A stretch of DNA of 14,962 nucleotides, from the IMG/VR virus record IMGVR_UViG_2529293000_000008; one strand, written 5' to 3'. A model generated the notes under the pieces. It was not told where the DNA came from and did no database searches. It worked only from the letters and a program-made list of their open reading frames with translations. Source of the DNA: a virus (Duplodnaviria > Heunggongvirae > Uroviricota > Caudoviricetes). A program made the position numbers and the translations under genes. Shown one piece after another: positions 1 through 14,962 of the stretch (positions are counted from its first letter, which is position 1; each line of letters opens with the position of its first letter).

Positions 1-165
1 ATGGCAAAGCCGATCATCACGCTCAATGGCCTAAAAATCGTCATTATGTTGGGAATGCTGGTCATTATTCTCTGCGGTATCCGTTTTGCCGCCGAGATCA
101 TCGTGCCGTTTATTCTCGCATTATTTATTGCTGTTATATATAACTTATTTCGCATAACACATTGA
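1..165 (+). pseudogene. tqsA: 5' fragment of a host inner-membrane transporter gene (AI-2E/PerM family, TqsA/YdgG-like), truncated and fused to foreign sequence at the island junction
   Basis: ORF starts at nt 1 and encodes [46 protein letters not shown], a hydrophobic transmembrane N-terminus that matches TqsA/YdgG as I recall it (not searched). After about codon 46 it continues as YNLFRITH and stops at 163-165, so only a 54-codon fusion remains. Confidence 0.45.
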
Positions 166-344
166 TTTAATTAAATAATTAACACCGCAAAAAGTGCCAA
201 AAATCGCAAAATGACTACACCAGTGACTACACCGTTCGGTGCACTGTATGAAACAACGTGGAACAAATAGACACAAGAAATATACAGGCGGATCATCTTT
301 CCAGGGGGAAGCACACCAATTCATGAGGGGCGTTAATGTCGATA

Positions 345-609
345 TGGGGATCCCCACCTACCGGAATTTTTTTCCGGTTAAACGTTAATCAGGCTGGTGG
401 GCTTTACCTGTTCGGTAGGTGTTATGATTATCGTAATACCTTTCCCCCAATGGGGTAAAAGCATCAACCGTAACGAAAGTCGTTATGGTTGCCACTGATA
501 CCCCAAATTTGGGTATCACGAGTAAGCCCCAAAATCTGGGTGTTACTCTTACTACCCAAACTACGGGTAGTTTCCGTAGTTTCATGGTCGAGTTGCAGAT
601 CTGCAACTC
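345..609. repeat. Cluster of perfect and near-perfect palindromes in non-coding DNA beside the island junction (function unknown; candidate packaging or recombination site)
   Basis: Read directly: tggggatcccca 345-356; ccggaatttttttccgg 361-377; 9 bp inverted repeat cacctaccg 355-363 with cggtaggtg 413-421; cccccaatgggg 444-455; cccaaatttggg 502-513; ccccaaaatctggg 527-540; aactacgg/ccgtagtt 559-581; 20 bp perfect palindrome gagttgcagatctgcaactc 590-609. Confidence 0.5.
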
Positions 610-863
610 CCCCATTAACCACAGGCGAATTTCCGCCTTCGGTCATTCCTTAATCATCTGCGTAATCATAATGATTATTCAGCAAGCGCAATTTTGCGCT
701 TTGCTTAAAGTTCAGCGAGTTACCGCGCCGACTTCCTCAAATTGAGGTTTCCGAAAATATCAGCGGGTTAGCGATTAAGCTGACCATTAATTAAACTGCG
801 AAAATGTCGTAGTTGTGAGGGGTGTAGCCAACCCATTTTTGGGCCGTCGGGAATATCAACCAG

Positions 864-1145
864 TTACCGCCGCAACCGCTCCGGCTTCTTCCAGTGGTAC
901 GTTATTTTCTCCTTCTCCCGATACATCTCCACGCGGCGACGGTAGGCCAGCAACTCAAGAACTCTGGTTCGTATGTTGCGCATATCCACGCCATTAAGTT
1001 CTATACCATCACGGCGCATCACCTCAGCAACAACACGCGCATAGTTTTCGGCTGTCACGCTGTCCGGCTGCGTGGCCTGTTCGTCAGCCTGCTGGCTGAT
1101 TCCGGCAACGCGGCGGATTAATCCCGTTATTTCGGCTTCTGTCAT
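864..1145 (-). CDS. Hypothetical protein (93 aa) at the distal end of the packaging operon
   Basis: ATG at 1145 preceded by a GAGG Shine-Dalgarno; begins 14 nt after the TerL stop on the same strand; no recognisable motif. Confidence 0.5.
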   Translation of the reverse strand: MTEAEITGLIRRVAGISQQADEQATQPDSVTAENYARVVAEVMRRDGIELNGVDMRNIRTRVLELLAYRRRVEMYREKEKITYHWKKPERLRR

Positions 1146-1158
1146 GCTGCTGACCTCA

Positions 1159-2820
1159 TTACACCCCGCTAAATTCTTCCAGTTTCTGGCGGTGGCTGTC
1201 GCTTATATCAAAAGCAAAATCCTCATGCTCTGCCTGGAATGTACCAAACGCCATCAGCGCCGCCACGCTCGGGTCTATCTTGTTCGGTGATTTTTTCTTG
1301 TTCGGCTTGATATTGGCGTTCGCGTCACTCTGCATCACGACGTTACTCATCGACCAGGACAACACCGGATCGCCACGATGCACAATCACCCTGCGGTTAA
1401 CAAAAACTTCGAACGATTTCGCCGCCGGACTGAATCTGAGGTAGGTTTGCGGGAACGGCTCCACCTCAAAACCTGCCCCCTGTAATTGCGTTCTGAGATG
1501 CGTGGCGTTCCACGTATCAAAGCCCACCAGCCTGATATTAAATTTCTCCGCGTCCTGCATGATGTCATCTCTGATCCGGTCGTAATCAATGCAGTCGCCA
1601 GGCGTTGTGCGTATCCAGCCTGCTTTAGCCCACTGACGATAGATGGCGCGGTTTTTATTGGCGGGGTTCTGTAGCTGAAATTCCGGCAGATAGTGACGGG
1701 AAACCAGCATAATGGTTTTACCGACCGGAAAGGCATAGCACACGCTGGAAATATCGCTGGTTGATGATAAGTCCAGCCCCGCGTAACACTCCTGGCCGTG
1801 TAAATCTTCCTCCGTGAACGTTCCGGCACACTCAGCCCATGCGCCGTTACCCATCCACGGGGTAGCCCCCTGGCACCAGATATTAAATCGCTTTGTCATC
1901 ATCTCCACCCACTGCGACGGAATACCCCGCGCTTTCTGGATGGTTGAGGCCAGTTTTTCACGATCGACGGAAACATCAATATTAGGGTTCGCCTTTATCC
2001 ACATCGCCGGATCATCAACCTCGTTTTCGTCGTCCAGTTCGTAAATCAGTACAAAAATTGAATCGTTAACCTCTTCGCCGTCCAGGATCTGGCAGCAATA
2101 ATCATAGTGCTGCTTACAGGCTGAAACGACGTTGCTGCCTGATGTGGTAATGGCAAATAACAGCCCTTCGGGACGTGCGCCCATCCCCAGCTCAAGCGCG
2201 GAATAAACGCCGTTATCGGGGTGCAAGTGGTATTCGTCCACGATGGAAAGGCTGGGGTTTGTTCCCTCGATGGTTGCCGCTTTTGCTGCCAGCGGCTTTA
2301 ACAGGCTGTTGCTTTTCGGGTGTATCACCTTATGCGCCTGAATATTCACCCGCCTGCGTAACGGTCGGGATAAAAGGCACATCTGACGCGCATCATCAAA
2401 GACGATCCGCGCCTGGTCACGGCTCACCGCTGCGGTGTAGATATCCTGCTGACCGTTCTCCATAATCAGAAACCAGTTAGCCAGAATCGCGGCGGTCGTG
2501 GATTTCGCATTTTTGCGCGGCACTTCGATAAAGGCGCTCGTGTATTTGCGCCGTCCGGTGGCCTTAACCTTAAAGCCGAGGATGCACGCAAAGGCGAACT
2601 GCTGCCACGGCTCCAGCTCAATGGGTCTGCCACGCATCGGTCCTTTTACGTGCGGGCACACCCTGGAAAAGGCAATAAACCGCTCCACAACCTCACGATC
2701 GAACGTGTAAAGGGGGCTTTTAAGGTCCGAAAAGTACCGTTTAACGGCCTGTTTCAGCCGTTTACAGGCCGGAATTTTGCCCGTTTTTACGTCTTCTGCG
2801 TACTTATTCCAGGCGGTCAA
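1159..2820 (-). CDS. terL: Terminase large subunit (TerL)
   Basis: 553 aa; terminase-type deviant P-loop (PRKNAKST), size and overall pattern typical of TerL; TTG start at 2820 preceded by GAGGA; overlaps the TerS 3' end, consistent with translational coupling. Confidence 0.9.
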   Translation of the reverse strand: MTAWNKYAEDVKTGKIPACKRLKQAVKRYFSDLKSPLYTFDREVVERFIAFSRVCPHVKGPMRGRPIELEPWQQFAFACILGFKVKATGRRKYTSAFIEVPRKNAKSTTAAILANWFLIMENGQQDIYTAAVSRDQARIVFDDARQMCLLSRPLRRRVNIQAHKVIHPKSNSLLKPLAAKAATIEGTNPSLSIVDEYHLHPDNGVYSALELGMGARPEGLLFAITTSGSNVVSACKQHYDYCCQILDGEEVNDSIFVLIYELDDENEVDDPAMWIKANPNIDVSVDREKLASTIQKARGIPSQWVEMMTKRFNIWCQGATPWMGNGAWAECAGTFTEEDLHGQECYAGLDLSSTSDISSVCYAFPVGKTIMLVSRHYLPEFQLQNPANKNRAIYRQWAKAGWIRTTPGDCIDYDRIRDDIMQDAEKFNIRLVGFDTWNATHLRTQLQGAGFEVEPFPQTYLRFSPAAKSFEVFVNRRVIVHRGDPVLSWSMSNVVMQSDANANIKPNKKKSPNKIDPSVAALMAFGTFQAEHEDFAFDISDSHRQKLEEFSGV

Positions 2821-3160
2821 GCTCGTCCTCTTCTTCTGTTTCCGGTGGGTTTTTACGGCGGCTTATCGGGTCAAAACCGAGCAAGGAGGCCATTTTTATC
2901 ATCACCCTTTCAGCGTCTGATTTCGCGCTTAATGCGGGGTTTCTGCTCTCGCCGCCCTGACTGTTAACAATGCTGAACCCGCGCGCCGCAAGGTCTGCGA
3001 CGGCTTTCCGGTAAATGGAGTAGTTGACACAATACAGTTCCAGATTGCTCCAGTCGGCGGGGGTCAGGTCTCCCCGTTCCGCAAGCTGCCGCGATTTTTC
3101 CCGCCACTGCTTCACGGCGATGTCATCCAGGTAGGCGGGGGCTTTCGGTGGTCTTGCCAT
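2804..3160 (-). CDS. terS: Terminase small subunit (P27-family-like TerS)
   Basis: 118 aa, MARPPKAPAYLDD...LELYCVNYSIYRKA pattern typical of P27-family small terminase; ATG at 3160; lies directly upstream of TerL. Confidence 0.8.
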   Translation of the reverse strand: MARPPKAPAYLDDIAVKQWREKSRQLAERGDLTPADWSNLELYCVNYSIYRKAVADLAARGFSIVNSQGGESRNPALSAKSDAERVMIKMASLLGFDPISRRKNPPETEEEDELDRLE

Positions 3161-3282
3161 GCTTATTTTTCGTCAGATTATTTTTCAAAAAATTCCCGTG
3201 CATAAAAATTTGAGGAGGCGTTCGGTGCCCGGCGGGGTCGGGTTTGTCCTGAAAACGCCCCCCACCCCGCCATACAGCCTCA

Positions 3283-3465
3283 TCAGCGATTGCGGAAACA
3301 TTCCATAACCTCGCGGTCACGGTCGGTTAATCGCTTCGCTGTGATGCGTTCTGCGCGTCCTGACGCTTTATCTTTATGCCCTGTTTCCTGTGTCTTCCAT
3401 GCGTCACGCTGCCTTATAAGTCCACGGATAAGGCGGTTTTGTTCCCGCTCATTCATCAGCGTCAT
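3283..3465 (-). CDS. Possible small basic protein (about 60 aa) between HNH and TerS
   Basis: Internal ATG of the 3283..3687 ORF overlapping the HNH stop; Arg/Lys-rich; weak or no Shine-Dalgarno, so the call is tentative. Confidence 0.25.
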   Translation of the reverse strand: MTLMNEREQNRLIRGLIRQRDAWKTQETGHKDKASGRAERITAKRLTDRDREVMECFRNR

Positions 3466-3889
3466 ACATCCAGTTATTGCGGTTAGCGGCCCGTTCTTCA
3501 TCTTCACGAAATCCACCTGCGGCACGCTTGCTTTTTGTTGCCGGATCAAGCCATTTCGTTTTCTGGTTATGACACGCCTGACACAATGGCTGATGGTTCC
3601 ATTCGGGCCAGAAGAGAACATCATCGCCGCCATCGATGGGGATAATGTGATCCACCACCACGGCGGGCGTATATATCCCCTTCTCAAGGCATCGCACGCA
3701 TAACGGGTTTTTACTCAGATACATGGCGCGGTATTTGTCCCACTGTCTGGAGTACCCACGCGCGCGGCGGTGTCCTCGTCTGGCATCCTCTGCACGCCAT
3801 GCCGCCCGCCTGTGCTCCTCACACTTACCGGACTTAACGCGCCTGTTACAGCCTGGTTCTGTACATCGTCTTAATGGTTGCCACGGCAT
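3449..3889 (-). CDS. HNH endonuclease (terminase-associated)
   Basis: 146 aa with Cys-rich N-terminus (CTEPGCNRRVKSGKCEEH) and HNH core (DHIIPIDGG...NHQPLCQACHNQKT); sits immediately upstream of terS as in HK97-type cos packaging modules. Confidence 0.85.
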   Translation of the reverse strand: MPWQPLRRCTEPGCNRRVKSGKCEEHRRAAWRAEDARRGHRRARGYSRQWDKYRAMYLSKNPLCVRCLEKGIYTPAVVVDHIIPIDGGDDVLFWPEWNHQPLCQACHNQKTKWLDPATKSKRAAGGFREDEERAANRNNWMYDADE

Positions 3890-4182: not shown

Positions 4183-4517
4183 TTTTCCGCGCCCTCACGA
4201 CAAAGAATTTCAAGGCGTGTCCTGGCGGCATCTGGCAGCGGTTGCCCGATGATATTCAGTACACGCCCCGCCAGCGGCCCCGTATTGACCTTTATCCGAC
4301 TGGTGGCGTTGATGTCCTTCCGGTAGCGTATCCATATCCTTACAGTTCCAGTCGCCAGCTCTGCACCTGATGAAATGGCCTCCTTGCTGCTGATCATGTT
4401 CACGCTTGCCCAGAGTGTGTGACCGTCCACCCACGTTTCGAGTATTTCGCCCGTCATGGCTCTGGTCTGTTTCAGGGTCTGAATCGTTACCCTGTCACGC
4501 AGTCGCCCTATGTTCAT
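4179..4517 (-). CDS. Head closure / head-tail joining protein (gp7- or SPP1 gp16-like)
   Basis: Start chosen at internal ATG 4517 (MNIGRLRDRVTIQ...) with a GGGAGA Shine-Dalgarno, overlapping the portal stop; IRYR and C-terminal pattern typical of head-closure proteins. Confidence 0.75.
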   Translation of the reverse strand: MNIGRLRDRVTIQTLKQTRAMTGEILETWVDGHTLWASVNMISSKEAISSGAELATGTVRIWIRYRKDINATSRIKVNTGPLAGRVLNIIGQPLPDAARTRLEILCREGAEK

Positions 4518-5725
4518 TCCGGTTTTTCTCCCTCGCTGATTTTTACTTCCTGTTTCCATGCCTGGCTGAACTCATCACCACCATCACGCGGTGACAGTCC
4601 TTCACGTTCGCGGGCTTCGTTCGGACACATAACGCCGGATTTGATGCCGCGCTCATAGGTGGCAAAGCGTTCGCCAGGTGTGGCCCGTAACAGGTCCGCG
4701 CTGTCAAACTCCACCTGATACCGGATACCAGGTACAGGCGAGGCCACCAGCAGGGCGTTTTTTATCTGCTGCTCAAAGTTCGCCAGCCACGGGCGCATCG
4801 TCATGGTGAGAAATGCGCGGCTTGCCTCGCTGAAATTGCTGTAGGTGCTGTTGCTGTATTCCTGCAAAAAAATCGGCGAGACGTTGAACATTCTGGCGAT
4901 GTCTTCAATGGTGAAGCGACGGGAGGCCAGCCATTCAGCATCCTGATTACTCATGCCCAGCTGCTGATAGCTCATACCCCCTTCAAGGATGGGCGTTTTT
5001 CCGGCGTTTCTGGCCCCTTTGTAGCGTTCCAGTGCGGCTAATGCCTGTTTGCCCTTCACGCCGTCCAGCCATTCGCCTGACGTGATAACCCCTGCCGCCA
5101 TCATGCCATCACGCATCACGCTCGCGCCGTGGCGTTGTTGGGCCAGCCCAAGCCCCAGCGATTCGCGGCAGATGGTTACAGGTGAGCGCCCCATAAAACC
5201 GTCATCCGTGGAGTAACGAAGGTGGAGAACCTCCCACGGTAAATAGTTGCGGGTGTTTCCGGTGTAGGCGTCAGTGATGCAGTAGCGCCAGTTATGCTCA
5301 CCTGTCTGCTCAACGTTCACCGACTGCGGCGGGTAAGGATGCAAAGCGACTGGAAAACCATCACGCCCCCACTGAATCACCGCATAAGCATTACCGTTTA
5401 ACAGGCAGTGGCGGATCATCATTCGCTTAAACTGGTAGGGGGTTTGCCATGCGTTCGGGCGCTCGTTGAGGATGTGATCGACCGGATGAGAATCAAGCCA
5501 CTCTCGGGCCTCCTTCCCCTTCTCATTGCGTACCAGGTACAGGTAACACGGCATGGTAGCCACCGCCTCAGAGATGACCGTGACGGCGTTCATGACGGCG
5601 GGCAGTGATTCCGCTGTCCCCGATGATACGTACTCACCCGCCCCCGTGTTCGATGTGCCAGCCAGCGCCATAAACTCATCAAGCGTCATGCTGCGCTGCT
5701 CTTTTTTTCTTCTGAAAGGCCACAT
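4514..5725 (-). CDS. Portal protein (HK97 family)
   Basis: 403 aa with the LLNGNAYA motif and overall HK97-family portal pattern; ATG at 5725. Confidence 0.9.
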   Translation of the reverse strand: MWPFRRKKEQRSMTLDEFMALAGTSNTGAGEYVSSGTAESLPAVMNAVTVISEAVATMPCYLYLVRNEKGKEAREWLDSHPVDHILNERPNAWQTPYQFKRMMIRHCLLNGNAYAVIQWGRDGFPVALHPYPPQSVNVEQTGEHNWRYCITDAYTGNTRNYLPWEVLHLRYSTDDGFMGRSPVTICRESLGLGLAQQRHGASVMRDGMMAAGVITSGEWLDGVKGKQALAALERYKGARNAGKTPILEGGMSYQQLGMSNQDAEWLASRRFTIEDIARMFNVSPIFLQEYSNSTYSNFSEASRAFLTMTMRPWLANFEQQIKNALLVASPVPGIRYQVEFDSADLLRATPGERFATYERGIKSGVMCPNEAREREGLSPRDGGDEFSQAWKQEVKISEGEKPE

Positions 5726-8731: not shown

Positions 8732-8780
8732 TTTTATTTTTACCCCCTCGTTTAAAAAGTTTTGAGTTGTGCCTCCCCTT

Positions 8781-9006
8781 GTCTACCTTATCTACCTTAC
8801 TGGCTCTCATGCCAGTAATGGCGCGGCTTTCAGCGGGGTAGAGTGCTTTTATCCACTATCTACCCCGTATCTACCTCCCTGTCTGATTCAGGTAAAATCA
8901 GGTAGAGAGGGTAGATAGTAGGTAGACAGTGAAAAAAGGCTGTCTACCTAAGTTAATATACTGAATTAAATGTATTTTTCTTTACTCAGGTAGACAGGGT
9001 AGACAG
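8781..9006. repeat. Iteron array and AT-rich tract; putative origin of replication
   Basis: At least 11 copies of the heptamer GGTAGA(C/T/G) or its complement in both orientations: 8781-8787, 8790-8796, 8837-8843, 8858-8864, 8869-8875, 8901-8907, 8910-8916, 8921-8927, 8942-8948, and tandem GGTAGACAG at 8989-8997 and 8998-9006; AT-rich stretch 8950-8985; immediately 3' of the primase-helicase gene. Confidence 0.65.
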
Positions 9007-9019
9007 CCATTGCAAAAAA

Positions 9020-10774
9020 TTATAAAAACGCGTCGCAATCGTCTGTTGTTATTGCGTTAGTCTGCGTTACTCCCTTAACTTTCCGCGTAATATATTCATG
9101 TCCGTAAACTTTCGCGGCTGGCTTCATAGCCTTGCCAAAGTCATTTACGTTTAGCGGTTTGCTCCTGCCTGCGTACGCCATAAACGCCAGATAGACGCGG
9201 TAAAGGCTGTTTCTGGTCGTGTACTTCACTGAATCGCCACCGCCGCCCATCATCAGGCCGCGTGCTTCCTCCAGAAAATTCAGGAACTGGCAAAACTCAA
9301 TAACCGGATCCGTCTGTTGCTTTATTGCCAGTGCTTCATCACCGTCACGCTGTTCAATGAGTAAAGCCCGTGCCTTTTCAGGGTCGGCAAAGTTCGCCAG
9401 CAAGCGGCGGATAATCACAGGGATTTCAGCCGCGATCTTTTCCGGTAGCTCCCTGTCTTTTTCTGCCTCGCTTACGATGTTATCGAACCGGAATATCACC
9501 CGACGACGTGCCACACCTCCGGCCCGTTCGGTGAATATCATCGGATTGTTATTGGTTGCCAGCACCACCGCCCTGATTACCGCCGTAAAACGCTTTTCAT
9601 ATTTCGGGTTAATTTCCACGGGGTCGCCGCCCGTGATTTTCTTGATGCCCGTTCCTTCGCCTGTATATTTCGGCTGGTCTGCCAGGACGATAAGACGACT
9701 CCCGACAACCTGCGCACGCCCACCAGCATCATCAAGCGATGTCATTTCAGCGCTTACCGTGTTCTGTTTCCCTGCCAGAAGGCTGGCTATGTGTGTGAAT
9801 GTACTTTTACCGCTCCCGCCGTCTCCGGTGGCCTCAATAAACATCTGCCAGTCGTACCGGTTCGCCATAATCATGTACAGCGCGGCACATATACGCATCA
9901 TCTTGCGCGGGTCTTTTCCGGCTGCGTGCTCAAGCCATTTATGAAAGTTTGGCGCGTTATCGCGGATGTTCTCCCCTGGTGCTGGTGGCGTGTACTCAAT
10001 GCCGTTGTGCGTGGTGATCCAGTTCTCCGGCGTGTGCGGGGAAAATTCCCCCGTTTTCAGGTCAAGCGCACCATTGGCGAACGGCAGCAAATCGCCGGAC
10101 GGCTCGCCCATTGGTTCGGCAATAACTTTTAACGCTTCCACGGCGTTATTGATTACGCGCTTGCTGAAAGTGGCCCTGTGCTCTGAATAGATCGCCACCA
10201 TTTCGCGGCTAAGTTCCATTGTGCTGACCGGACACCATACCCCGCCGCGCCATACGTGAACGATTTCACTTTCAGGATGTACGCAAACGCCATCAAAGCG
10301 ATCGGCAAGCAGCTGCGCGCGCTCACTGTCCGCCATCTGCGAAAGTTGCGCCTTTTGCTTTACCGGAAGCTCAATGACCAGACCATCAGAAAGATTCTGG
10401 CGCTCACGGGCCAGATATTCGCGCCAGTTCTCCACCTTCTGACCGTGCATACCCTCAGGATAAAAATTTGCATCCTGTACGCCTGCCGCCGCCAGCTTCT
10501 GGCCAATCGCCTTTATCATTACTGGCGCAAGATATCCGGCCCTGAATATGCGCACGGATTTTCTGCCTTCCGGCACAATTTGCAGCTTATCCAGTTCTGA
10601 TAACTGCTGCTCCCCAAGCCACACAGGAGGCTCATTATCTCCGGCCATACGCGCATCATGTTCCTGCCATTGTTTCGCGTGTGCCCAGGCATCACTACCC
10701 GCAAAAATAATGACTTCTGTTCCTTTGTGTTTTATGCCGCGTGACTGCTGTTTTACGTTCGGTGCCAGTTTCAT
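9020..10774 (-). CDS. Replication initiator: P4/D5-type primase-helicase (Pri-Rep)
   Basis: 584 aa with Walker A GDGGSGKST and a Walker B-like RLIVLADQP segment in the C-terminal half, as in P4-alpha/D5-like helicases; ATGA coupling with the upstream ORF; AGGGGT Shine-Dalgarno. Confidence 0.85.
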   Translation of the reverse strand: MKLAPNVKQQSRGIKHKGTEVIIFAGSDAWAHAKQWQEHDARMAGDNEPPVWLGEQQLSELDKLQIVPEGRKSVRIFRAGYLAPVMIKAIGQKLAAAGVQDANFYPEGMHGQKVENWREYLARERQNLSDGLVIELPVKQKAQLSQMADSERAQLLADRFDGVCVHPESEIVHVWRGGVWCPVSTMELSREMVAIYSEHRATFSKRVINNAVEALKVIAEPMGEPSGDLLPFANGALDLKTGEFSPHTPENWITTHNGIEYTPPAPGENIRDNAPNFHKWLEHAAGKDPRKMMRICAALYMIMANRYDWQMFIEATGDGGSGKSTFTHIASLLAGKQNTVSAEMTSLDDAGGRAQVVGSRLIVLADQPKYTGEGTGIKKITGGDPVEINPKYEKRFTAVIRAVVLATNNNPMIFTERAGGVARRRVIFRFDNIVSEAEKDRELPEKIAAEIPVIIRRLLANFADPEKARALLIEQRDGDEALAIKQQTDPVIEFCQFLNFLEEARGLMMGGGGDSVKYTTRNSLYRVYLAFMAYAGRSKPLNVNDFGKAMKPAAKVYGHEYITRKVKGVTQTNAITTDDCDAFL

Positions 10775-13744: not shown

Positions 13745-14962
13745 TTATTTTCTTCTGGCTACTGGTAGCGTGGTTACGTTTTCATGTGTTCCCGCCAGTA
13801 TCCCTAACCGCTCCGTCCACATATCCAGCGCATTGCGTTTAGCATCCAGATAACGGGAATGATTATAAACTCGCTGCATTCCTGGCATCTGATGACCTGT
13901 AAGCTGCTCCACGACATGCGGATCAACGCCTAAATCGTTCAGCATGGTTGTAAAGGTGCGCCGGATGTCATGCAGTGACCAGTGAGGATGATTAAGCCTC
14001 CTGTGCGCTAATCTTCCATACTGCGATACGCTGGCCTCCTGTTTCGCTTCCCCCAGCAATAAGCCCGTGTGCCTGTTCTGCTCCACCAGCTGCGTGACGA
14101 ACGGCAGGATCGCTTCCGGTATGGGCCGGAATATTGCGACCTTCGTTTTGCTGTGCTCCTTCGGAACGGTCCATAGCATTTCCGTAAAATCCCACTCCCC
14201 GATCTCCGATAGCCTCAGTTCTACCGTCCTGGCTCCGAAGACAATCAGGAGGCGGATTAACGCGACGTAGTAAGGGGAAAATATTTTTTTGTCCAGTGCC
14301 TGCAATAATTCGCCAAGTTCTTTGTTACTTAAGACACGTTCGCTTATATCCGGTTTTTTCCCAACGTCCGCCACGTTCAGATCGTCCAGAACGTTGCTGA
14401 TTGCATAGCGCCGCCTACGGCAGAACTTAAGCGCCTGTTTGCACGCCTGTAGCACGAATCCGGCAGTAACAGGCGTTCGCTTTGCCACCTGGTCAAAACA
14501 GGCCAGCCAGTGCCGTAGCTCGCATTTATCCAGCGGCATAGCACCAATCTGCTGTATTACGTGATTATTAAGTCGCCTTTTCAGGGCGATATAATCCACG
14601 CGGTTTTCCTTTACGTAATACTCAAGCCAGTAGGTGAGCGCATCGCCAACCGTTACGGGCTTTAACGCTTCCTGTACGGTGTAATTCATCTCATGACGTG
14701 GATTTTTCCCCTCAGCCAGCCATGTGCGACACTGTGCGGCTTTTTCCCTGGCTGCTTTCAGGCTCAGATCAGGATAACTTCCCAGCTTAATGCGTTCGGG
14801 TCGTGTCTCCCTTCCCGTTCCGGCCCTGTATGTGAAATACCAGGTCAATTTCCCTGATGTTAAATATTTCACGCTCAGGTTTCCGCCATCACTATAAAAC
14901 GTGTTTTTCTCCGCTGGCTTACCATGAAGTTTCCTTAGCAAGGTATCGCTCAGTTTGTTCAT
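13745..14962 (-). CDS. int: Tyrosine recombinase / integrase (P4-like)
   Basis: 405 aa; N-terminal arm-binding-like region (LTSGKLTWYFTYRAG...LGSYPDLSLKAAREKA) and C-terminal catalytic region with HDIRRT and RVYNHSRY (His/Arg/Tyr signature); start codon lies at the window edge. Confidence 0.92.
   Translation of the reverse strand: MNKLSDTLLRKLHGKPAEKNTFYSDGGNLSVKYLTSGKLTWYFTYRAGTGRETRPERIKLGSYPDLSLKAAREKAAQCRTWLAEGKNPRHEMNYTVQEALKPVTVGDALTYWLEYYVKENRVDYIALKRRLNNHVIQQIGAMPLDKCELRHWLACFDQVAKRTPVTAGFVLQACKQALKFCRRRRYAISNVLDDLNVADVGKKPDISERVLSNKELGELLQALDKKIFSPYYVALIRLLIVFGARTVELRLSEIGEWDFTEMLWTVPKEHSKTKVAIFRPIPEAILPFVTQLVEQNRHTGLLLGEAKQEASVSQYGRLAHRRLNHPHWSLHDIRRTFTTMLNDLGVDPHVVEQLTGHQMPGMQRVYNHSRYLDAKRNALDMWTERLGILAGTHENVTTLPVARRK

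Follow-up and report, generated by a model that had tools for sequence, protein, structure and literature searches.

What is a dense run of palindromes doing in a part of a satellite island where no gene is found? The question is raised by positions 345-609 of a 14,962-nt stretch of DNA (IMG/VR record IMGVR_UViG_2529293000_000008; hereafter the window), in which a first-pass annotation, made from the letters alone, had noticed the palindromes and suggested a packaging site, an att-proximal recombinase site or a structured RNA. The RefSeq annotation of the corresponding locus in Escherichia coli FORC_069, together with Pfam, identified the window as a capsid-forming phage-inducible chromosomal island (cf-PICI) inserted into the 5′ end of tqsA. 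Phage-inducible chromosomal islands (PICIs) and cf-PICIs are major models of gene transfer and are engineered as delivery vehicles, and their maps leave the stretch between the last gene and the attachment (att) site blank. The prototype of the cf-PICI family is EcCIEDL933 (bioRxiv 10.1101/2022.09.08.507074). We found that positions 345-609 are three separable modules, B, C and D, which form part of a gene-free tail of ~700 bp reaching from the final island gene, orf93, to the att junction. The cluster is probably neither a DNA-packaging nor an integrase site.

All the palindromes quoted in the first-pass annotation were located at the positions it gave. Counting every centre whose perfect arms measure 6 bp or more and whose loop is no longer than 8 nt, we found nine distinct hairpin or palindrome centres within 345-609. 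Comparatively, dinucleotide-preserving shuffles of this segment gave 0.60 ± 0.77 centres, and none of 2000 shuffles reached nine. Elsewhere in the 15-kb sequence the median count per 265 bp was zero, and 345-609 was the maximum overall. Single-strand folding was also stronger than in shuffles (z = -8.6 for the plus strand and -7.6 for the minus strand). The claim of a density far beyond chance was thus borne out, although the cluster does not end at 609, as the palindrome-rich zone runs on to ~869. The cluster was also rightly placed at the edge of a satellite island, inside the cf-PICI tail near the att junction. It was wrongly placed directly downstream of terL, from which a conserved 93-aa gene, orf93, separates it. 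The view that no gene explains the cluster also held: RefSeq has no feature at 145-863 in the identical FORC_069 locus, and the open reading frames (ORFs) that run across it match no Pfam family and vary in extent from one tail to another. We rejected a small-protein reading of the tail, since these ORFs are not conserved and carry no domains; a 100-aa ORF called in the tail of locus L032 proved on translation to be a low-complexity peptide.

Genome matching showed that the first 1200 bases of the window share 100% identity with FORC_069 and further E. coli strains, and at least 80% of them were covered at one place in 196 genomes. A BLAST comparison of the tail with 5426 complete E. coli genomes gave partial matches, in many combinations, in 1557 genomes, and no part of the tail matched the other 3869. 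Every match examined in its context was the tail of a PICI or satellite. Downstream of orf93 homologues we gathered 37 further distinct tails (38 with the window), and the module borders were drawn by mapping the window tail against these 37. Among them, B, C and D were each found to be present, missing or doubled independently. Module B has 20 distinct variants and one to three copies per tail (three in L003), module C has 15 variants and module D has 12. Module D was present in 706 of the 5426 genomes. Phage genome records gave no match for 150-1200. A plasmid collection gave tail matches in six E. coli records, including a 10.8-kb circle with PICI genes (L059), in which D is present.

The owners of these tails are diverse. 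They include cf-PICIs, classical PICIs with Rpp-like or Nu1-like genes or ClpP-capsid fusions, an island without packaging genes, and helper-embedded satellites that lie within the capsid genes of prophages. Module-bearing islands are integrated at tqsA, phoQ, clpS, yejO and the thiM side, in addition to prophage capsid genes. Module D was found in 8 of 13 cf-type tails and 13 of 24 other tails, and module B in 12 and 15 of them, respectively. Five of the 13 cf-PICI tails adjoining a window-like terL lack D; the cf-PICIs L022 and L026 lack it despite a window-like terL and an orf93 protein identical to that of the D-bearing L018-L021. Module B stands beside four different types of integrase arm repeat, and it is absent from L002 and L059, though their clpS-type arm is that of the B-bearing L008. 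Considering all the tail modules, four or more arm types were observed. The distribution is therefore modular and independent of the type of packaging and of integrase. The modules are a repertoire private to Escherichia/Shigella PICIs, and no published description of them was found in the literature searched. The tail of the Klebsiella cf-PICI vB_KppS-Ant has no palindrome cluster.

The pairing within the modules is conserved by compensatory change. Hairpin S1 of module C, which is CCCCA/TGGGG in the window, shows a compensatory change to CCACCA/TGGTGG and also occurs as CCCA/TGGG. The 20-bp palindrome of D has GATC at its centre, and helper-embedded satellites have a symmetric change to AATT there. 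The M unit, which lies between D and orf93, recurs in many tails with covarying arms (e.g. GGTCAT/ATGACC versus AATCAT/ATGATT). A further series came from the U units, each of which has a box, TAACysGyTGATATT on the minus strand, followed by a short palindrome. Among 46 distinct U units in the 38 tails, 14 different stems were found, with complementarity kept through compensatory changes. Starting from AGCGCAA/TTGCGCT, single compensatory steps lead to AGCTCAA/TTGAGCT, AGTGCAA/TTGCACT and AACGCAA/TTGCGTT. A perfect hairpin of at least 5 bp lies downstream of the U box in 77% of segments, compared with 12% of shuffles. Compensatory change was thus seen in U, S1, M and the centre of the 20-mer. 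By contrast, D hairpin hp3 is broken in the helper-embedded variant, and extra copies of B have broken palindromes (two of three in L003). As a scan for orf93 with one genome per species yielded Shigella only, the covariation rests on Escherichia/Shigella tails. Module D was conserved in sequence as well. Between the window and L002, D has 94.3% nucleotide identity and the adjacent orf93 has 83.5%, with 33% divergence at third codon positions; D is thus better conserved in this pair than the neighbouring coding gene. The coordinates of the modules and of other features are given in Table 1.

Table 1. Features of the window, starting with the palindrome cluster and its modules
Feature	Position	Strand	Remarks
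TGGGGATCCCCA	345-356		perfect 12-mer
ACCGGAA-TTTTT-TTCCGGT	360-378		hairpin
CCCCA-A-TGGGG	445-455		hairpin S1
TAACGA-AAG-TCGTTA	471-485		within 27-nt imperfect hairpin 465-491
TGATACCC-N7-GGGTATCA	496-518		encloses perfect CCCAAATTTGGG at 502-513
GCCCCAAAATCTGGGT	within 521-549		near-palindrome within GAGTAA...TTACTC
ACTACCC-N7-GGGTAGT overlapping AAACTACGG-N7-CCGTAGTTT	551-582		
GAGTTGCAGATCTGCAACTC	590-609		perfect 20-mer
Module B	340-440	-	12-mer 345-356, hairpin ACCGGAA/TTCCGGT 360-378, conserved CAGGCTGGTGGG 391-402
Module C	441-491	-	S1 (445-455) and 12-bp imperfect hairpin CAACCGTAACGA-AAG-TCGTTATGGTTG (465-491)
Module D	492-614	-	four hairpins: 496-518, 521-549, 551-582 and 20-bp palindrome 590-609
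Degenerate GC-rich hairpin AGGCG..CGCCT	623-638	-	11-bp terminator-like stem downstream of D in other tails
M unit	648-682	-	TAATCAT-T-ATGATTA, ACGCAG, second ATGATTA, AAGG
U3	681-725	-	box, 8-10 nt, short palindrome
U2	732-773	-	as U3
U1	828-869	-	as U3
tqsA 5′ fragment	1-144		interrupted by island; tqsA pseudogene fragments annotated at both island ends
att core TGCTGTTAT	129-137	.	left junction, inside tqsA 5′ fragment; 9-mer again at L001 31846-31854 (right junction)
Integrase arm-type direct repeats	212-244	+	TGACTACACC twice, with flank; outside cluster
orf93	864-1145	-	93 aa, final island gene
TerL	1159-2820	-	
TerS	2804-3160	-	P27 family
Candidate cos region	3161-3282	-	gap between 60-aa ORF after HNH and terS; G-run GGGGTGGGGGG, GC-rich, then AT-rich
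HNH	3449-3889	-	followed by 60-aa ORF
Portal	4514-5725	-	connectors come next
SSB, PerC, major capsid, protease	between primase and portal, in that order	-	
Primase	9020-10774	-	
AlpA-like regulator, then Icd-like genes	between int and primase	-	
int	13745-14962	-	

The explanation that we favour, tentatively and well short of conviction, is that the hairpins punctuate the 3′ tail of the late operon inside the known 3′ accessory hotspot of PICIs. The minus strand carries every island gene. This unidirectional transcription makes the tail the 3′ untranslated region (UTR) of the late (capsid and packaging) operon, and in the circular form orf93, the tail, attP and int follow each other in a single direction. 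The 3′ end of PICIs is a published site of accessory and immune genes (PMC11364771), and the tail of the window appears to be an empty hotspot of this kind, filled with PICI-private hairpin modules. In this model, the tail is a set of small non-coding modules (B, C and D, plus M and U at 648-869) that form hairpins and are inherited independently of one another, and recombination in this cargo hotspot would add, remove, double and reshuffle them. They would work through nucleic-acid structure and not as a specific cos or att site. Stacked GC-clamped hairpins might act on the late transcript as barriers to 3′ exonucleases or as pause or stop signals, and so might stabilise the late mRNA and shield attP, int and the flanking host gene from read-through. 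By analogy, such a role would be comparable to that of repetitive extragenic palindromic (REP) sequences and bacterial interspersed mosaic elements (BIMEs) at the ends of chromosomal operons. The modularity and the conserved pairing described above count in favour of this reading, and so does position: vB_KppS-Ant has a canonical terminator in its equivalent tail, a terminator-like hairpin comes after D on the L059 sense strand, the hairpin of C and then ATGCTTTTACC come after D in the window, and the circular L059 has its tail immediately upstream of int and co-directional with it.

REP sequences protect mRNA 3′ ends and bind nucleoid proteins. The E. coli REP/BIME family (including the IHF-containing RIP/BIME-1) resembles the tail in being extragenic, in lying at operon 3′ ends and in combining short imperfect palindromes with other motifs as a mosaic. 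Both have a motif that fits the IHF consensus, both vary in the number and order of copies, and both keep pairing more than sequence. However, there is no sequence relationship. The palindromes of the tail are shorter (12-22 bp), there is no RAYT-type transposase, and the tail is not dispersed in the chromosome, 1557 of the 5426 genomes having any match at all. The U units might correspond to the mosaic organization of BIMEs, each joining an IHF-consensus box (a pattern match) to a covarying palindrome, but their orientation is direct and not alternating. The pneumococcal BOX element (boxA-boxB(n)-boxC) is similar in its intergenic tandem sub-units of ~45-50 nt, variable in number and with stable stem-loops. 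Unlike BOX, which is dispersed in the manner of miniature inverted-repeat transposable elements, the units of the tail keep to one position in one satellite family. The tail modules thus resemble the REP/BIME kind without being members of it, because they share no sequence with it and are not dispersed. Several other systems were compared by eye and rejected (integron attC, Xer/dif, sopC-like centromeres and lambda nut with boxA/boxB), since the motifs or spacing did not fit or the palindromes were too variable. A CsrA sponge was also rejected, as GGA and ANGGA are not enriched.

Several observations weigh against hairpin punctuation of the transcript. A terminator scan found no intrinsic terminator on either strand of 345-609, and the hairpins there lack a proper U-tract, so they are not canonical intrinsic terminators. 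Mismatches of the wobble type showed no strand bias (17 G:T-type on the sense strand versus 18 on the antisense strand). Many of the palindromes, including the one with the change from GATC to AATT, are complementary through their centres, with loops of 0-2 nt. As a hairpin of RNA or single-stranded DNA does not need central complementarity, this suggests a cause at the DNA level, either binding of a protein to the dyad or "palindrome perfecting" by template switching. Strand balance, central dyads and missing U-tracts together favour a DNA-level origin, or at any rate do not speak for one transcribed strand. Furthermore, the modules are optional, so any function that they have must be dispensable or redundant.

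The first alternative, which we consider unlikely but serious, is that the modules are neutral debris of the cargo hotspot, in which inverted repeats are kept perfect by template switching (quasipalindrome correction) and serve only as spacing. The optional, shuffled and doubled modules are what it would predict, and so are the decaying extra copies of B in L003. The tail length varies from ~0.34 kb (Klebsiella) to >1.2 kb, and the complementarity across palindrome centres and the equality of strands also agree with it. The U boxes resemble the region of the orf93 stop codon, which U1 overlaps, and this suggests a tandem duplication of the gene end. On the other hand, debris would hardly be better conserved than the adjacent gene or occur in 706 genomes, as D does. 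Nine hairpins per 265 bp are extreme, and a fixed spacing between box and hairpin over 14 stems is hard to obtain without constraint. If the modules were mere punctuation or debris, the finding would be an ordinary one. They are a satellite-private repeat family with clear compensatory evolution, for which control of mRNA ends, insulation of attP and int, and a DNA-based function are the candidate roles. The results also indicate which sequence could probably be removed from synthetic islands or exchanged for cargo.

A rather unlikely alternative makes the tail a DNA platform, with IHF-type bends at the U boxes and dyad or cruciform-prone sites bound by a protein of the PICI or its helper (e.g. 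orf93, AlpA or a helper factor), which would help the island to excise, to replicate or to interfere with its helper. When reverse-complemented, the U box agrees with the IHF consensus WATCAANNNNTTR; the 38 tails hold 98 such matches versus ~2 in shuffled tails, although all are mere pattern matches and the tails are related to one another. Binding of a protein to DNA would agree with the lack of strand bias, with the symmetric change in the 20-mer and with GC-clamped perfect dyads (12-22 bp) that have GATC or AT at their centres, and orf93 is constantly adjacent. Nevertheless, the palindromes have many unrelated sequences, with a spacing of 3-7 nt between C-run and G-run, so no single dimeric protein fits them. 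In addition, islands can lack the modules, and among the loci read we saw no island gene that goes with them.

It is quite unlikely, in our estimate, that D and the hairpin following it form a stable small RNA (sRNA), derived from the 3′ UTR or independent, that acts in trans on helper or host transcripts, for example. In favour of such an RNA, D is compact (123 nt, four hairpins), highly conserved and mobile as a single block, and the fold z-scores of -7.6 and -8.6 given above agree with it. The sequence also offers alternative, mutually exclusive pairings at 551-582 and 445-518. The sense strand of L059 has, after D, an 11-bp hairpin (10447-10472; ACCGAGGGCGGAATTCCGCCTTCGGT then TACTTATTGT) that was flagged as terminator-like, and this hairpin with its T-rich tail is also found in L002 and L010. 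The copy in the window (623-638) was not flagged. On the sense strand of the window, D is followed by the 465-491 hairpin of C and then by ATGCTTTTACC. Several results point the other way. Rfam 15, including the C4/CI antisense RNAs, gave no match at gathering thresholds in the whole window, and a separate Rfam scan of 100-1000 gave chance-level hits only (E ≥ 2.8); for D there was no match even at E = 10. Promoter scans found no promoter-like site upstream of D, hp3 is broken in the helper-embedded variant, and the wobble pairs show no strand bias. The structured RNA of the first-pass annotation gained support from the compensatory conservation of its hairpins, and it found none in Rfam, in a promoter-terminator pair or in the wobble pairs. 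A structured nucleic-acid element is a live possibility. A scan of the window for tRNA and tmRNA genes found none, and one weak terminator-like site (878-861) lies over the stop codon of orf93.

It is also doubtful, though conceivable, that the tail is a dedicated cis-acting system of the satellite, in which the units of box and covarying hairpin and the GATC-centred palindromes of 20-22 bp would be structure-specific signals. They might serve as single-strand initiation sites for the island primase and SSB in rolling-circle synthesis of concatemers. Alternatively, they might be decoys or landing pads for a structure-specific protein of the helper phage or the host, and thereby aid spread or interference.

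The att site itself was located outside the cluster. The 33-nt stretch at 212-244 is repeated (31/33) between the right junction and the start codon of int (E = 1e-10). It is, together with 249-266, the only significant repeat common to both island ends, and none of the sequences in 345-609 recur near int. An IHF-consensus site (a pattern match) was found at 155-167. From the sequence, the recombination site would span ~129-275, and the cluster starts ~100 bp past the last arm repeat. In the NZ_CP148328.1 circle the joined attP has the co-directional order of tail, arm repeats, core, arm repeats and int. An equivalent layout with a different repeat, TGTATAAACA, was found in vB_KppS-Ant, where a canonical intrinsic terminator after the orf93 homologue is followed by attP and the stretch from this homologue to int is ~335 bp. 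The suggestion of an att-proximal recombinase site was thus not upheld: the core and the arms lie outside 345-609, B accompanies four arm types, and L002 and L059 do without B while sharing the arm of L008. The attP of P4-type (Arm-DNA-bind_3) tyrosine integrases is similar in that a genuine attL, complete with core and direct repeats of the arm type, adjoins the cluster. It differs in that the cluster lies past the arms and varies independently of the type of integrase and arm, and that islands with the same Int type can do without it. Two observations on the arms may be added. Repeats of the TTGTTyC type also lie on both att arms (window 129-275; L001 31690-31860), and islands at other att sites have a similar layout with other repeats (GGTGTAGTTAAT, GTTATACG and TGTATAAACA).

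A more limited version, in which B alone is an accessory part of attP, namely an outer P arm bound by IHF or by a directionality factor, is very unlikely. Where B is present in the tqsA, phoQ, clpS and yejO islands, it is the module nearest to the Int arm (~100-125 bp), and ~200-300 bp separate it from the core in the circular form. However, its occurrence with four arm-repeat types means that it is not Int-specific, and it is missing from two islands with the arm of a B-bearing one. Up to three copies occur per tail, B is further from the core than the arm repeats are, and C and D clearly bear no relation to the type of att site.

The first-pass annotation had also proposed a cohesive-end (cos) or pac site, or a terminase-binding region. 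In EcCICFT073, two functional cos sites have been defined experimentally, and their double deletion abolishes transfer (PMC6092414; PMC6739421). In the part of this island that was read, the exact lambda cosN 12-mer (GGGCGGCGACCT) has just two occurrences, L006 2559-2570 and 3298-3309, which flank rppA. The homologous tail, with U units, B and the arm module, follows orf93 and is separate from both copies. Allowing up to two mismatches, the 12-mer was not found in the tail of the window; the only match in the window (9621-9632) lies in the primase gene and is expected by chance. Module B has some likeness to lambda cos by eye (GATAATCAT..ACAGGTAAAG and AAAATTCCGG). This likeness is not significant, as 82 of 500 and 24 of 500 shuffles scored as high or higher in local alignment, and we dropped the homology because both cosN copies of EcCICFT073 were found elsewhere.

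A better candidate for the cos site was found upstream of terS. Packaging in the cf-PICI family needs an HNH protein, as in HK97 (bioRxiv 10.1101/2022.09.08.507074). The linear HK97 record ends in the gap between HNH and terS, with a G-run ~50 nt inside its right end and an AT-rich leader to terS. The corresponding gap in the window, 3161-3282, has a layout similar to these record ends. Its motif ggggtggggg.(g/c)gttttcaggac is conserved in vB_KppS-Ant, the TerS of which is 83% identical over the aligned part. The linear record of vB_KppS-Ant starts 22 nt before terS and ends in the HNH-terS gap; these ends, possibly an annotator's cut, weakly support a cos site there. Judged by synteny and layout shared with HK97, the cos site of cf-PICIs probably lies in this gap, to which the search for it is now redirected. 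The palindrome cluster is ~2.6 kb away, past terS, terL and orf93, and does not share the HK97-type position. The cos sites of EcCICFT073 (cos1 and cos2), lambda and HK97 are like the cluster in being non-coding cis DNA of the packaging half, where IHF sites and dyads are frequent. They are unlike it in that cos1 and cos2 carry the cosN 12-mer and flank rppA, that the HK97 site is upstream of terS, and that the modules of the tail are optional in cf-PICIs. Although the terminase genes share an island half with the cluster, cos sites commonly have palindromes and IHF-type sites near them, and two papers on cf-PICIs give no cos position, a packaging or TerS-binding role of the cluster is extremely improbable, given that D is as frequent in tails with other packaging as the counts above show and is missing beside window-like terL genes, that vB_KppS-Ant with its similar TerS lacks the entire cluster and has just a terminator and attP there, that the modules also occur in PICIs packaged through lambda-type cos sites and Rpp with cos1 and cos2 elsewhere, that the tail has no cosN and B no significant similarity to lambda cos, and that the HNH-dependent HK97 has its cos site in a gap conserved here.

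Some features of the tail deserve a separate description. The hairpin of D at 551-582 has two mutually exclusive pairings. Its arms are present in several copies (AAACTACGG, AAACTACCC, GTAGTTT and GGGTAGT), which makes neighbouring hairpins mutually exclusive. The same is true of the adjacent hairpins at 445-518, with the arms CCCCA, TGGGGTA...TACCCCA and TTTGGGTA; the arm copy number is three or four at these two places. In some variants of B the palindrome is a near-palindrome of 20-22 bp, CGATATGGGG/CCCCATATCG. At 418-441, GGTGTTATGA-TTA-TCGTAATACC forms a 10-bp stem on the plus strand only, by means of two G:T pairs that become A:C mismatches on the sense strand of the island. It is the sole hairpin with a clear strand preference, and the preference opposes island transcription. 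In the M unit, the 3′ arm (ATGATTA) is duplicated. The U box was considered as a promoter and rejected: TTGATA is a possible -35 element, yet no suitably spaced -10 element follows, and promoter scans found none.

The gene next to the tail, orf93, belongs to PHROG 1561 and has 1028 homologues, with no Pfam or PDB match. It was the last gene, upstream of the tail, in every E. coli/Shigella PICI locus read, whether classical, capsid-forming, helper-embedded or without packaging genes. In the Klebsiella cf-PICI a homologue of 62 aa has the equivalent position. Another gene of vB_KppS-Ant (L031 2036-4333), of 765 aa and annotated as a tape measure protein, lies between terL and the orf93 homologue. 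It has no counterpart in the E. coli islands and is unexpected for satellites described as being without tail genes. An example of cargo in the tail hotspot was found in L028/L029, helper-embedded satellites within the major-capsid gene of a prophage, where a gene of the "abortive infection family" (1603-2364) lies between D and the att junction and is convergent with orf93. A ToxI-like array of a type III toxin-antitoxin system beside the L028 gene was considered and rejected, as the module is downstream of and convergent with that gene.

At 8760-9010, beside the primase gene, about a dozen GGTAGA/TCTACC iterons in both orientations flank an AT-rich stretch, presumably the replication origin of the island. 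We rejected the tail as an origin with P4-crr-like iterons, since these iterons lie near ~8760-9010 and none is in the tail. Finally, the 10.8-kb record L059 (NZ_CP148328.1), a "non-mobilizable plasmid", carries int, alpA, a primase gene, a ClpP-capsid fusion, DUF1441 and orf93, and has the appearance of an entire PICI excised as a circle.

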